Source: Candidatus Campbellbacteria bacterium (GTDB lineage Bacteria; Patescibacteriota; Minisyncoccia; Phycocordibacterales; EsbW-18). From it: a DNA stretch of 64,000 nt. The stretch is from contig CP064977.1 in assembly GCA_016699465.1 (NCBI GenBank), forward strand, positions 478,503 to 542,502. The letters are read 5' to 3'. Position 1 is the stretch's first letter, and each line of letters opens with the position of its first letter. Shown piece by piece: positions 1,883 through 49,445 of this stretch. Under the pieces are notes generated by a model. It did no database searches and was not told the origin of the DNA. It was given only the letters and a program-made list of their open reading frames with translations. The translations under genes were made by a program, and so were the position numbers.

Positions 1883-3664
1883 TTATTCTTTGTGGATGTC
1901 AACAATCCTCAATCGGATGCCGTTCGTGTATCCAAATGTTTCTTTTTCCATAGAAGCAAGAAGTGTAATGGACTGCCCTGCCGACACACGTTCCAAGGTT
2001 TCGTTTCCCTTTGCAAAAAACTTCACAGCAGAAATCATTTTTCCTCCCGAGGTCTTAAAGAGTAATTTGAGATGTTGTTTTTCTTTTCCAAACATTTCAA
2101 TCCTATCAACAAGTATGTTTTCAAATGCAAACACAGGCTTTGGATTACCTGCCCCAAATGGCGCAAGGTGAGAAATACTTTCGTATACTTCTCGTGTCAC
2201 ATCATCGAGAGAAAGCACTGCATCAACGGTCATTTTTTCCTCAGATACTTCCTTAGACGCCAATTTTGTATGTGCATCTGAAAGTGCGGCCTCCAGAAGC
2301 ATAAGATTTTCAACTGTAATAGAAAACCCGCCCGAGTATTTGTGTCCTCCAAATTCAAGAAACAAGTGTCGCACCTCACTCATTAATTCCATCGCACCAA
2401 CACGACCATCAGATCGTACTGAACCTTTAATCACTGACGCATCGCCTCGCCCCCACACAAAGGCACTTTTTCCATACGCTTCCACTACGTGTGTTGCAGC
2501 AAGCCCAAGCAATCCCGGACGCCAGTGTGTATTCCCCACGACAATAACCGGAAGTTCATGCGGTGTTTCTTCAAACTTTTGTTTTATCTCTTTACTCATC
2601 TGCGCCACCGCGCCCTTTCGTTCGTTGTTAATAGAATCCAAGTGGCGCACGAGATTTTCTGCCTCAGTGAGGTTCGTTGTTGAGAGAAGTTGAAAGGCCG
2701 CCTCAGGTTCGTCCATACGCGATGCAGCGTTAATACGCGGGGTAATCATAAATACAACGTCATCCTCAGTCAGTGAATACTGTTTCATTCGGAGGTGCGA
2801 CAACAGTGTGCGAATACCAAGGCGTGGTGATTTTTTTAGCACTAAAAGTCCGTAGTGCGCAAAGACACGATTTTCTCCTGTCAGTGACACCATGTCAGAG
2901 AGCGTTGCAATACCCACCATGTCGAGTAACCATTTCTCCCAACCAATAGGAATGTCTTTTTTTGCCTTCAATAAGAGCGCTTGCGCAATTTTGAAAGCAA
3001 CACCTGCTCCACAAAGGTTTTTGTTTGGATACTCGTCTCCCTCTTGGTTTGGATTTACAATCGCATACGCTTTTGGCACGTCGTGATTTTGCATGTGGTG
3101 ATCGGTAATGATGACATCAATACCCGCATCCATCGCCCGAGCAACGTGCACCACATCTCCCATTCCACAATCAAGTGTGATAACGAGCCCAACCTTCTTG
3201 TCAATGAATGTTGAAATAGCATCTTCATTGAGTCCAAACCCTTCTGTGTTGCGGTGTGGGATGGTGACAGAGAAATTTTCATATCCTATTTTCTTCAAGA
3301 GGTCATGCATCACCACAGCAGACGGAATACCGTCGGCATCAAAATCAGAAAAGAGAGCGATATGTTCGTTACGCTCTACAGCCGACAGAATACGCTCAAT
3401 CGCTTTTTTCATGTCTCGCAACAAAAATGGATCATGCCCATCGTGGTCATATCGCGGTGAAAGAAAAGCATGGGCACCCTCTTTTGTCCTAATACCACGG
3501 TGAAATAGGAGTTTTTGAATAAGCTCGGAATACTCAGCAAGTTGCCCCCGTGTCTCCTTGTCTGGATTTTCAGCAACTATATACTTCTGTACCTGTTGGT
3601 TATTCATGGAATTGTTAGTATACCACCCCACCACTCTAGACTTTGTACCGATATATCGGTACAA
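1883..3664 (-). CDS. recJ: Single-stranded-DNA-specific exonuclease RecJ
   Basis: The DHH/DHHA1 pattern DFDADGIPSAVVMHDLL...ITDHHM is present. The likely real start is the internal Met (MNNQQVQK) near 3607, because the first 19 codons are translated from the upstream palindrome. Confidence 0.9.
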   Translation of the reverse strand: MYRYIGTKSRVVGWYTNNSMNNQQVQKYIVAENPDKETRGQLAEYSELIQKLLFHRGIRTKEGAHAFLSPRYDHDGHDPFLLRDMKKAIERILSAVERNEHIALFSDFDADGIPSAVVMHDLLKKIGYENFSVTIPHRNTEGFGLNEDAISTFIDKKVGLVITLDCGMGDVVHVARAMDAGIDVIITDHHMQNHDVPKAYAIVNPNQEGDEYPNKNLCGAGVAFKIAQALLLKAKKDIPIGWEKWLLDMVGIATLSDMVSLTGENRVFAHYGLLVLKKSPRLGIRTLLSHLRMKQYSLTEDDVVFMITPRINAASRMDEPEAAFQLLSTTNLTEAENLVRHLDSINNERKGAVAQMSKEIKQKFEETPHELPVIVVGNTHWRPGLLGLAATHVVEAYGKSAFVWGRGDASVIKGSVRSDGRVGAMELMSEVRHLFLEFGGHKYSGGFSITVENLMLLEAALSDAHTKLASKEVSEEKMTVDAVLSLDDVTREVYESISHLAPFGAGNPKPVFAFENILVDRIEMFGKEKQHLKLLFKTSGGKMISAVKFFAKGNETLERVSAGQSITLLASMEKETFGYTNGIRLRIVDIHKE

Positions 3665-3666
3665 AG
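3639..3666. promoter_or_regulatory. 28 bp perfect palindrome ACTTTGTACCGATATATCGGTACAAAGT, a candidate operator
   Basis: A perfect inverted repeat sits between the TrpR-like gene stop and the recJ start. Its 20 bp core TGTACCGATATATCGGTACA is repeated exactly at 4081-4100 and 49141-49160. Confidence 0.55.
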
Positions 3667-4074
3667 TTATTTTTCAGTTAACCGGTATATTCTATGCCAT
3701 CGACCCCGACCTTGCGGTGGAAGACCTGCACGTAACATATATTCAATATCTTTCCAAAAATGCAAATTTCTCTTTTCAAGAAAGCAAACAAGTTGAGCGA
3801 TTCTTTTAAATTCCGTTGCTGCAGAAAACCGTTGGGCCGTTGAAATACTCAGACCAAGAATCTCACTCACCCTTCTCACCGGAACACCTTTTGATAACAA
3901 GTGAATTGCGGCAAGACGTTTTGCAAGCATAATTCGTTCGGTTTTTGTAAGCAGTCCGTGCACTAATAAAAGCGCATCCTTTGTTTCATTGGCACGAGAT
4001 ACGTTATGCACCAAATCACGAAAAATCGTTTGAAGAACTTTCTCGGAAATCTTTTTTCTTGAAACGTGCGGCAT
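3667..4074 (-). CDS. TrpR/YerC-family helix-turn-helix regulator
   Basis: The C-terminal part of the 218 aa track ORF starts at MPHVSRKK. It contains LLTKTERIMLAKRLAAIHLLSKGVPVRRVSEILGLSISTAQRFS, which fits the Trp-repressor/YerC HTH pattern. The upstream part of the ORF is low-complexity read-through. Confidence 0.6.
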   Translation of the reverse strand: MPHVSRKKISEKVLQTIFRDLVHNVSRANETKDALLLVHGLLTKTERIMLAKRLAAIHLLSKGVPVRRVSEILGLSISTAQRFSAATEFKRIAQLVCFLEKRNLHFWKDIEYMLRAGLPPQGRGRWHRIYRLTEK

Positions 4075-4080
4075 ACATAA

Positions 4081-4100
4081 TGTACCGATATATCGGTACA
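4081..4100. promoter_or_regulatory. 20 bp perfect palindrome TGTACCGATATATCGGTACA, a candidate autoregulatory operator
   Basis: It begins 7 bp upstream of the ATG of the TrpR/YerC-like gene, in the region divergent from the HIT gene. Confidence 0.55.
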
Positions 4101-4185
4101 GACTAATATAAAGTAGTAAACTAAAGGAAATATAAAGAACGTGGTCTTGTATTGAACCATATAAAAAGACTATACTAATCGGTAT

Positions 4186-4590
4186 ATGACAGACTGTATT
4201 TTTTGCAAAATCGTTTCGGGAGAGATTCCTGCAGAAAAAGTGTATGAGGACGAACACACTCTCGCCTTTTTGGACCTTCACCCGAGCAATCCAGGTCACA
4301 CACTTGTTGTACCAAAAGAACATTCACGCAACGTGTTGGATAGTCACCCAGATACCCTTACACACATGATTCATACTGCACAAAAAATTGCCGTGGTCTT
4401 AAAAAATATTGGAGCTGAAGGAGTCAATATCATTTCAAATAATGAAACCGCTGCAGGCCAGGTAATCTTTCACACACACCTGCATATCATTCCCCGCTAC
4501 ACAGATGACGGACTCGCACTATGGCATGGAAAACCATATCCTGAAGGTGAAATAGAAAAGATGGGAGAAAAAATACGGAATGCTCTCTAG
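4186..4590 (+). CDS. HIT-family (histidine triad) nucleotide hydrolase
   Basis: CIFCKI...FHTHLHIIP carries the HxHxHxx histidine triad. Confidence 0.85.
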   Translation: MTDCIFCKIVSGEIPAEKVYEDEHTLAFLDLHPSNPGHTLVVPKEHSRNVLDSHPDTLTHMIHTAQKIAVVLKNIGAEGVNIISNNETAAGQVIFHTHLHIIPRYTDDGLALWHGKPYPEGEIEKMGEKIRNAL

Positions 4591-33640: not shown

Positions 33641-33898
33641 GTGCTAAGGGATTCAAAAGGCGCAGACACACCTCCTGTGAAAGATGAAATGCCGAGCCAT
33701 GGTCGCGAACACTTTACATTTTGGCGCGCATGCGACAAAAAGCTTAGTGATTCATAACCGAATCCCCCACACAAACAAAGAAACGAGGCATGCAGTGTTC
33801 TGCAACTATTGGTTTGTGTAGCGCTGAGGGATTCGACAAAGAAAATTTCTTTGAAACGAACAAAAAATATTGACCAGAAGCAGGTTTTTTGTTTTTTG

Positions 33899-33970
33899 TC
33901 CTCCCGGCAGGAATCGAACCTACATCAAGAGCTTAGAAGTCTCCTGTTTTATCCATTAAACTACGGGAGG
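33899..33970 (-). tRNA. tRNA-Arg (TCT)
   Basis: Cloverleaf built by hand. Anticodon loop CTTCTAA. Confidence 0.7.
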
Positions 33971-34273
33971 AATGCTTTTGCCAAAAAATTTAAACTCTTT
34001 GTACGTTTTTCTTCGATGACAATTTGCACAACGCACAGTGCACTTCTTTATTTCTTTCAAAACCGACTCCCAAGAATAGTGTCCTGAAAGCATTTTTGAT
34101 ACCGATTTAAACTTCTCTGCACGGTTTTTATGATCAAAATCCAATACTATAGGATCTTGTTCACCGCAGTCAACACACGACTTTGTAGACAAAAACTCAA
34201 ATAATTTTCTTCGCACACCAATTCGGTGACGTTTTTGTGCTTTATAGAGGTCTTCTCGATGCTTGTAAGGCAT
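33956..34273 (-). CDS. HNH endonuclease
   Basis: CVDCGEQDPIVLDFDHK...N...CANCHRRKT beta-beta-alpha-Me/zinc motif. The last 5 codons overlap the 5' end of tRNA-Arg. Confidence 0.65.
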   Translation of the reverse strand: MPYKHREDLYKAQKRHRIGVRRKLFEFLSTKSCVDCGEQDPIVLDFDHKNRAEKFKSVSKMLSGHYSWESVLKEIKKCTVRCANCHRRKTYKEFKFFGKSIPPVV

Positions 34274-34315
34274 ATGGAGGATTATACTACAAAGTTCTAA
34301 CCCTACCACTAGCGT

Positions 34316-43058: not shown

Positions 43059-43086
43059 GGCCCGCGCGAAGTACTTCGCGCGGGCC
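43059..43086. terminator. GC-rich palindromic hairpin GGCCCGCGCGAAGTACTTCGCGCGGGCC
   Basis: A 13-14 bp perfect stem between convergent ruvA and the GC-rich ORF. A T-rich flank is present on the minus strand. Confidence 0.5.
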
Positions 43087-48989: not shown

Positions 48990-49445
48990 TTACCGAAACA
49001 AAATAATTCCCACGGCTACCGATACATTGAGTGATTCCTTTTTTCCTTTCATTGGAATTTCAATCACTTCGTCACATTCTGCAAGAACGTCATGGGATAC
49101 TCCGCCAACCTCATTACCAAACACAAACGCAACAGGCCCTTGTACCGATATATCGGTACAAGGTTTTGAACGCGGGTCTTGCTCAACGGCAATAACCCGC
49201 ACACCGTCTTTTGTAAGTTTTTGTATGACGTCATTTGTTTCCTCGGCATATTCCCACGCTACACAATCTTGCGCACCAAGAGCAACTTTTGCTAGGTCTT
49301 TTCGATTGCGCCCGAAACGGTCAACGGGTGTTGGTGTCACGCCACACAGATACAACTTTGAAACACCCGCAGCGTCACACGTACGAAAAATAGATCCCAC
49401 ATTGTGCACGCTTCGGATGTTATCGAGAATGACGTACGTATTCAT
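48990..49445 (-). CDS. TrmH/SpoU-family tRNA/rRNA 2'-O-methyltransferase
   Basis: SpoU motifs NVGSIFRTCDAAG and VAFVFGNEVGGVS...IPMKG...SLNVSVAVGI. It contains the 20-26 bp perfect palindrome at 49135-49166 in frame (KPCTDISVQG). Confidence 0.8.
   Translation of the reverse strand: MNTYVILDNIRSVHNVGSIFRTCDAAGVSKLYLCGVTPTPVDRFGRNRKDLAKVALGAQDCVAWEYAEETNDVIQKLTKDGVRVIAVEQDPRSKPCTDISVQGPVAFVFGNEVGGVSHDVLAECDEVIEIPMKGKKESLNVSVAVGIILFR
49141..49160. promoter_or_regulatory. Third copy of the palindrome TGTACCGATATATCGGTACA, extended to 26 bp (CCTTGTACC...GGTACAAGG), inside the trmH CDS
   Basis: An exact match to the operator-like sites at 3639-3666 and 4081-4100. Confidence 0.45.

Follow-up and report, generated by a model that had tools for sequence, protein, structure and literature searches.

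TrpR and HisR/YerC regulators recognise operators that are 20-bp palindromes and differ from lineage to lineage, with a TrpR consensus of TGTAcTnGTnnACnAgTACA, and autoregulation is frequent in HisR, the histidine repressor of Firmicutes (PMC9413887). Here, we analysed a 64,000-nucleotide (nt) stretch of a Candidatus Campbellbacteria genome (GCA_016699465.1, contig CP064977.1, positions 478,503 to 542,502; hereafter the window). In this window, one palindromic element brackets the gene of a TrpR-like helix-turn-helix (HTH) protein and occurs once more, 45 kb away, in frame inside a gene of the SpoU/TrmH family of RNA 2'-O-methyltransferases (hereafter trmH). We propose that the trmH copy is probably a solo operator of the TrpR/YerC-like protein encoded at 3667-4074, acting as a roadblock or auxiliary site.

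In Escherichia coli, TrpR acts at trpO, at aroH and on its own gene, and trpO overlaps its -10 element. Repressors of the TrpR/YerC family need an amino acid, Trp or His, as co-repressor to bind DNA. Operators also occur inside genes or as auxiliary sites, such as lac O2 in lacZ and gal OI in galE, and CcpA, CodY and PurR act at roadblocks; at such high-affinity palindromes the bound protein can block elongation or contribute to looping. With E. coli TrpR, the system described here shares the fold, a 20-bp operator with outer TGTAC...GTACA and a predicted overlap of the operator with the regulator's own core promoter (PMC9413887 for the operator). It differs in having a protein of 130-145 amino acids (aa) with an extra C-terminal helix and a PPxGRGRW tail, an ATATAT operator centre, a second operator after the regulator stop codon, and hosts from the candidate phyla radiation (CPR). 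By sequence profile HisR/YerC is closest. However, HisR proteins are <100 aa, have neither the MPHVS nor the RGRGRW motif and control his genes through operators with the consensus cacTTTAnnnnnnTAAAgtg, whereas no his genes lie nearby here and the predicted targets are the regulator's own gene, probably recJ, and the intragenic site. The latter resembles known intragenic operators in that a palindromic repressor operator is predicted inside coding sequence (codons 95-103), with the regulator gene in the same window. Unlike them, it has no partner near the trmH promoter, is distant from the regulator gene and has overwritten a protein loop, fixing its residues.

Two families of dispersed palindromes also invite comparison. 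In repetitive extragenic palindromic sequences and their associated tyrosine transposases (REP/RAYT), as here, a gene is flanked by two cognate palindromes that are lineage-specific and track the protein, with extra copies in mosaic repeats in at least one genome. In contrast to RAYTs, the protein here is a small HTH protein without the HUH/Y1 (IS200/IS605-like) catalytic domain that defines them, the copy number is ~3-8 or more rather than hundreds, and the gene neighbourhood is recurrent. Rickettsia palindromic elements (RPEs) likewise place a palindrome in frame in a tolerant surface region of a gene, but they are insertions of ~100-150 bp that add residues, whereas the palindrome here is 20-26 bp and leaves the length unchanged. 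Overall, the system would work as an autoregulated repressor of the TrpR/HisR type with an intragenic operator added; what sets it apart is the longer, RGRGRW-tailed protein, the bracketing operator pair, the AT-centred sites and the loop overwriting. We found no description of two-operator bracketing in the literature on CPR, the coverage of which was incomplete, making this weak evidence of novelty. As transcription factors of Patescibacteria/CPR are almost uncharacterised, the predicted assignment of a cognate DNA site to a widespread family is of more than local relevance.

Three exact copies of a 20-bp core in the window

The first-pass annotation of the window had reported a perfect palindrome in frame inside trmH, and this was borne out. 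The limits given (49135-49166) are those of a 30-nt codon block plus margins, however; the palindrome itself, CCTTGTACCGATATATCGGTACAAGG, is 26 bp long and occupies 49138-49163. One perfect palindrome of this length is expected by chance ~0.001 times in 64 kb (64000 x 4^-13). Its 20-bp core, TGTACCGATATATCGGTACA, was present in three exact copies in the window (3644-3663, 4081-4100 and 49141-49160) and in none of 100 dinucleotide-preserving shuffles of the window. Exact identity of the core bears out the earlier view that the trmH palindrome and the sites at 3.6-4.1 kb are the same element. It does not extend to the full 26-mer, since at 3641-3666 the outermost symmetric pair of positions is different, this copy forming a 28-bp perfect palindrome of its own (3640-3667). 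The perfect palindromes of the three copies measure 28, 20 and 26 bp, and beyond them the copies have no sequence in common. Searching the window with shorter cores or half-sites gave no further convincing copies, nor weaker ones.

The bracketed gene encodes a TrpR/YerC-like protein

The sites at 3.6-4.1 kb lie just before the start codon and at the stop codon of a gene for a 135-aa protein (Table 1), the sole member of its family within the window. This protein scored 28.3 bits against Pfam Trp_repressor (PF01371), narrowly passing the cut-off of 27, and is not a TrpR equivalog (NCBIfam TIGR01321, 26 bits vs a cut-off of 67). The profile of its family matched the YerC-like structures 3kor, 3frw and 3g1c (E = 1e-8 to 4e-7), with E. 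coli TrpR at ~0.02. An AlphaFold2 model had a predicted local distance difference test score (pLDDT) of 79 and a predicted template modelling score (pTM) of 0.72, and contained nine helices and a C-terminal tail of low pLDDT. The top 15 PDB matches in a Foldseek search of this model were all E. coli TrpR, with probabilities up to 0.99 and target template modelling (TM) scores of 0.70-0.72, albeit with weak E-values of at least 0.2. A profile match, an all-helical TrpR fold with a central HTH and a ~20-bp palindrome upstream of its own gene place the protein in the TrpR/YerC family. This arrangement supports the earlier suggestion that the sites at 3.6-4.1 kb bind one regulator, for which the protein bracketed by both is the predicted candidate.

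Conservation within the family extends to the MPHVS at the N-terminus and to the helices other than those of the HTH. The longest open reading frame (ORF) or called gene for the TrpR-like protein runs upstream across the operator(s), both in the window (3667-4323, 218 aa) and at L101:1410-1871 (153 aa); because the MPHVS start is conserved, the true start lies downstream. As no protein 100% identical to that of the window was returned (best 90%), the source record may lack this gene or give it a wrong start.

Bracketing and helix/half-site covariation across the family

The family (consensus MPHVSxKKL...LLTKTEKIMLAKRLA...S.ST..R...LPPRGRGRW) comprises at least 216 clusters at 50% identity (E<=1e-30). 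Eighty metagenomic loci were retrieved, 72 of which had both flanks, and the 90 nt upstream of the ATG were compared with the 100 nt downstream of the stop codon for shared words of at least 12 nt. The gene was bracketed by such a word in 61/72 loci, compared to 1/354 control windows. Shared flank words contained ATATAT or TATA in 65/72 loci, examples being TATCATATATGATA, GATACGATATATCGTATC, CTTGCGATATATCGCAAG and ACTACAGTATACTGTAGT. At the family median, the upstream site ends 15 nt before the ATG and the downstream site starts 23 nt after the stop codon. For sites of the main class, TATACT lies in the half of the upstream site nearer the gene; this is the -10 hexamer that precedes recJ and HIT in the lineage of the window, and the upstream operator therefore overlaps the core promoter. 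Neighbouring genes recurred across loci: 29/82 had a thrS-like gene at most two ORFs upstream, and 24 had a gyrB-like gene at most two ORFs downstream, usually in convergent orientation. The regulator gene appears resident and is not obviously mobile.

The tie between palindromes and a TrpR-like gene in 61/72 loci also bears on the idea that a site-specific nuclease recognises or cleaves the palindrome, be it a restriction or homing enzyme or the HNH endonuclease at 33.9 kb, one candidate of the first-pass annotation. Long palindromes can serve as nuclease targets, and the ORF in question (33956-34309) has a CxxC...DH...N...CxxCH pattern typical of HNH proteins. However, a Pfam HNH domain was absent at E<0.01, the ORF adjoins no copy and lies 15 kb from the trmH site, no association with palindromes was seen in the window or in related loci, and no intron, intein or insertion is present at the site. 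A nuclease target is thus highly improbable. The same ORF (minus strand, 117 aa) overlaps a tRNA-Arg gene (33898-33970) at its 3' end, and its only Pfam match was a weak one to Integrase_H2C2 (E=0.005).

Across lineages, the core varies together with the recognition helix. The pairs of helix and half-site were SIST-GTACCGATAT (window, L100 and the Zambryskibacteria locus L015), SPST-TACGATAT, SPAT-TATCATAT, SYPT-TAACATAT, SYTT-TACAATAT, VT.QT-TATGATAT, ..ISKY-CAGTATAC and SDST-GGGCGATAT (L101). The Zambryskibacteria homolog (36% identity) has VSISTVTRM as its helix, and its gene lies between ATACCGATATATCGGTAT and an exact copy of the 20-mer. Throughout these classes the outer half-sites vary; the PPxGRGRW tail and an AT-rich centre, usually ATATAT but GTATAC in one class, are largely constant. 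This covariation amounts to a natural table of recognition helices against half-sites, testable in vitro. From these comparisons, we consider the palindrome very likely to be the DNA site that the TrpR-like family protein recognises. By homology with TrpR, the protein would bind the 20-bp dyad as a dimer, its recognition helix reading the outer half-sites, which vary between lineages. For the C-terminal PPxGRGRW tail, a role as an AT-hook-like element in the minor groove is probable, and it might read the ATATAT centre.

Other classes of palindromic site were considered and rejected. Sites of the parS/ParB, matS/MatP and NBS/Noc kinds belong with proteins of those families and cluster in a replication-defined domain, whereas the associated protein here has the TrpR fold. 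An origin or terminus marker was also rejected, as GC skew is uniformly negative across the window and there is therefore no origin or terminus nearby.

The TrpR-like module, recJ and close relatives

The gene order HIT / TrpR-like / recJ holds in the window, L100 and L101. A sister organism from the same sample (loci L100 and L001) has kept all three palindrome copies exactly. Its upstream operator is identical, while the ~30 nt immediately upstream of the operator have diverged, and its downstream operator is identical at 28/28 positions; the TrpR-like gene shows 29 synonymous and 14 nonsynonymous codon changes relative to the window. Among relatives whose RecJ proteins are 81-89% identical, some have the whole module (~560 nt; window 3608-4185) between HIT and recJ and others lack it. 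Junctions without it (L104:5970-6001, L105:5970-6001 and L106:9970-10001) are ~30 nt long, contain overlapping divergent -10 boxes and have no palindrome, on which ground site-specific integration at a solo palindrome was rejected. Because the recJ tree puts L101, the more distant module carrier, in the sister clade, presence of the module is ancestral, with loss on at least two or three occasions.

The downstream operator is ~17 nt upstream of the TATACT hexamer of recJ and would overlap its -35 region. The putative recJ -10 region is conserved among relatives, as GGTATACT in L100, L101, L104 and L105 and as GATATACT in L106. In this lineage recJ is likely a second target of the regulator: the upstream copy, overlapping the core promoter, would bring about autorepression, and the downstream copy, overlapping the recJ promoter beyond the stop codon, would repress recJ. 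The two module copies would thereby tie recJ through a promoter-overlapping site, and perhaps trmH through an intragenic one, to the regulator in one Campbellbacteria lineage. HIT also has a TATACT hexamer (4171-4176) ~10 nt before its ATG, like that of recJ (3617-3622); judging from this spacing, mRNAs in this lineage may have very short leaders or none.

Probable selection on the trmH site

NCBIfam matches of the palindrome-bearing trmH product to RlmB and TrmH were all under equivalog cut-offs. The in-frame palindrome encodes K-P-C-T-D-I-S-V-Q-G (residues 94-103), in a loop that the ortholog alignment places between the conserved VEQ strand and the FGNExxG motif. The first-pass annotation had this loop between motifs 2 and 3; in our reading of the SpoU nomenclature, FGNExxG is motif 2 and the loop precedes it. 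Across the loop, 32 trmH orthologs aligned without gaps, in agreement with the earlier remark that there is no length anomaly. The peptide CTDISVQ occurs only in the four closest orthologs (78-100% identity), all others having unrelated residues over the same length (e.g. TDYKKLSTKK). The sister lineage L103 (72% identity) has unrelated DNA of equal length at the site. As there is no indel across the loop, an origin by insertion, including in-frame palindromic insertion of the RPE kind, was rejected. A miniature-element footprint, another earlier proposal, likewise found no support, with loop length unchanged and no flanks common to the window copies.

The same alignment, together with the core copies and the synonymous sites (below), refutes the notion that the palindrome is a coincidence of coding constraint on a conserved peptide. 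Its in-frame placement speaks for such a coincidence and nothing else does. Against it, CTDISVQ is confined to four close orthologs and the loop is hypervariable elsewhere among the 32, which excludes a peptide strictly conserved in unrelated lineages; synonymous positions are conserved, a perfect palindrome of this length is hardly expected in 64 kb, and the same 20-mer occurs twice more in non-coding DNA. We give this explanation essentially no credence.

The comparison at the DNA level covered trmH of the window, L001 and L002, leaving aside a 93%-identical ortholog (P0002). The L001 and L002 proteins are 78-80% identical to that of the window, and the three genes differ at ~65% of third codon positions. 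The longest invariant stretch was the 20-nt core, followed by one of 11 nt. Synonymous third positions in the core were conserved 6/6, compared to a background of 0.34 for conserved-residue codons elsewhere (P=0.0016). Codons beside the core vary (CCT/CTT/CTC on one side, CAA/CAA/CAG on the other), and over ~20% nucleotide divergence the core itself shows no change, compensatory or otherwise. The loop peptide is lineage-specific, as the orthologs show, and the palindrome is conserved at synonymous sites. Our best reading of these comparisons is that the ancestor of a small Campbellbacteria subclade acquired the site in a tolerant loop, probably by sequence replacement in this hypervariable surface region, and that selection at the DNA level has preserved it ever since. 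The site would therefore dictate the peptide CTDISVQ, and not the reverse, and trmH would be a clear-cut case in which selection for a DNA-binding site sets the residues of a protein.

Weighing a solo operator against structure and dispersal

Copy identity, the bracketing architecture, protein-site covariation and DNA-level conservation are established; from these we infer binding, dimer stoichiometry, the role of the tail and an effect on trmH expression. When occupied, the trmH site would act as an intragenic roadblock or auxiliary operator and lower full-length trmH transcription. While we regard a solo operator of this general kind as probable, a specific roadblock effect on trmH is a tentative and rather doubtful proposal, given that the trmH promoter lacks a partner site close by and that nothing at the palindrome resembles a promoter. 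The downstream micro-gene first suggested as a target of control finds no support, since a terminator-like hairpin of its own follows trmH, and after it a convergent gene.

Several points weigh against the operator interpretation. No sigma-70-like promoter match was found at the trmH palindrome, nor a second operator near the trmH promoter, and the synonymous-site test involved three sequences only. In GCA_024653945.1, the trmH site is kept (L002) and the module is missing at the ancestral HIT/recJ locus of the same contig (L104), and a search over 34 kb of this contig gave no family member. It may be, then, that the site outlasts its regulator, or that the gene has been relocated or was lost only recently. 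Flanks outside the 20-bp core are self-complementary far above chance and differ between copies, which a protein-contact model alone leaves unexplained. Finally, the interpretation is built on sequence comparison and the host organisms are uncultured.

The genome of L002 also carries a 40-bp perfect palindrome, ATCAAGGTTAAACCTCGATATATCGAGGTTTAACCTTGAT (L002:13265-13304), in the interval separating ruvA from a Mur-ligase gene. The CGATATATCG centre is the same here and the arms differ; another member of the family may bind it, or it may be a composite that includes the AGGTTWAACCT motif. This motif is absent from the window.

The self-complementary flanks are the main reason to ask whether the trmH site works as nucleic-acid structure, independently of any regulator, either as an mRNA hairpin affecting translation, pausing or decay or as a cruciform in supercoiled DNA. 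The RNA hairpin at trmH folds at -21.4 kcal/mol (z=-5.6), the palindromes reach past the core to 22-40 bp with flanks that differ yet remain self-complementary, and the first flanking pair in trmH is T:A in the window and L001 but C:G in L002, a compensatory change. On the basis of these features, hairpin or cruciform formation may matter too. Downstream module copies have somewhat longer arms than upstream copies (p=0.01), and persistence of the trmH site in a genome without the module at its ancestral locus would also fit a structural role. However, the core has undergone no change, compensatory or otherwise, over ~20% divergence; its identity with the two sites on either side of the regulator gene speaks for recognition of a specific sequence; and a constraint on structure alone leaves the covariation between core and recognition helix unexplained. 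We consider a regulator-independent structure unlikely as the explanation of the site, noting that structural and operator roles are not mutually exclusive.

A related Paceibacterota metagenome-assembled genome (MAG), LejiaA_42_15, had eight exact copies on seven contigs, mostly intergenic and some between convergent genes, with perfect palindromes of 22, 28, 22, 28, 30, 22, 26 and 40 bp. Several of these lie in mosaic intergenic repeats, L004 and L014 sharing 109 bp at 97% identity. Within ~250 nt of the palindrome, the repeats of L004, L009, L013, L014 and L018 also hold GAGGTTWAACCTC hairpins and GC-rich terminator-like hairpins. Such copies raise the possibility that the one in trmH is a neutral or selfish dispersed repeat, REP-like, of the kind of a miniature inverted-repeat transposable element (MITE) or gene-converted from the module, that has not yet decayed. 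The module being itself an indel among close relatives, and a trmH loop that tolerates any sequence, would be in keeping with this. In contrast, the loop length is unchanged, the window copies share only the palindrome, no transposase or recombinase is associated, and the core is perfect in three lineages in which about two-thirds of synonymous sites elsewhere have changed. Solo cognate sites near the module are also rare in other lineages, at one per ~250 kb of flanks. A passive repeat is therefore improbable. The one solo site found in those flanks (L043:426-445, ACCTATCATATATGATATAC) is intergenic, lies 792 nt upstream of the regulator gene in a TATACT-bearing 'upstream-type' form, and may control another promoter.

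A more speculative view, to which we give little weight, is that the TrpR-like gene and its two palindromes form a self-contained module that is repeatedly gained and lost, either an HTH analogue of RAYT/REP or a CPR-specific, site-specific nucleoid protein. If this were the case, the palindromes would multiply within genomes, as with the eight in one MAG, and even overwrite tolerant coding sequence, and spread of binding sites rather than classical regulon logic would explain the trmH copy.

Feature coordinates and minor observations

Table 1 Features of the window discussed in the text, with coordinates counted from its first nucleotide.
Feature	Position	Strand	Remarks
Predicted solo intragenic palindrome copy	49138..49163		26-bp perfect; conserved unit is the 20-bp core 49141-49160
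Predicted upstream operator copy	4081..4100		Ends 6 nt before the TrpR-like ATG (4074); presumed autoregulatory, overlapping the core promoter
Predicted downstream operator copy	3640..3667		28-bp perfect; overlaps the last base of the TrpR-like stop codon
SpoU/TrmH-family RNA 2'-O-methyltransferase gene	48990..49445	-	151 aa; Pfam SpoU_methylase full-length, E=1e-38; palindrome at codons 95-103
TrpR/YerC-like HTH regulator gene	3667..4074	-	135 aa; MPHVS N-terminus, recognition helix LSISTAQRF, C-terminal LPPQGRGRW tail
TATACT -10-like hexamer of recJ	3617..3622	-	~10 nt upstream of the recJ ATG (3607); putative promoter element
recJ	1883..3607	-	Pfam DHH, DHHA1 and RecJ_OB; immediately downstream of the module

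IMG/VR viral contigs yielded no member of the family. The 18-mer core occurs in eight IMG/VR contigs (L107-L114, 1.3-7.1 kb), of which six are as large as a begomovirus or betasatellite, next to iteron-like GGTAC/GAGTACC repeats. The resemblance is apparently convergent and without relation to the bacterial system, and a phage origin of the palindrome was rejected on these two grounds, the viral contexts being unrelated. The 18-mer is also shared by Megasphaera hutchinsoni scaffolds that end in AAAGAGTACCGATATATCGGTACTCTTT (L003:6-23, L016:6-23 and L019:1577-1594), where the palindrome is probably an assembly-breaking repeat.

An Rfam scan of the window returned tRNAs only, with no RNA family at the palindromes. 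The sole other long perfect palindrome in the window is GC-rich and 28 bp long (GGCCCGCGCGAAGTACTTCGCGCGGGCC, 43059-43086), and is probably a bidirectional terminator.

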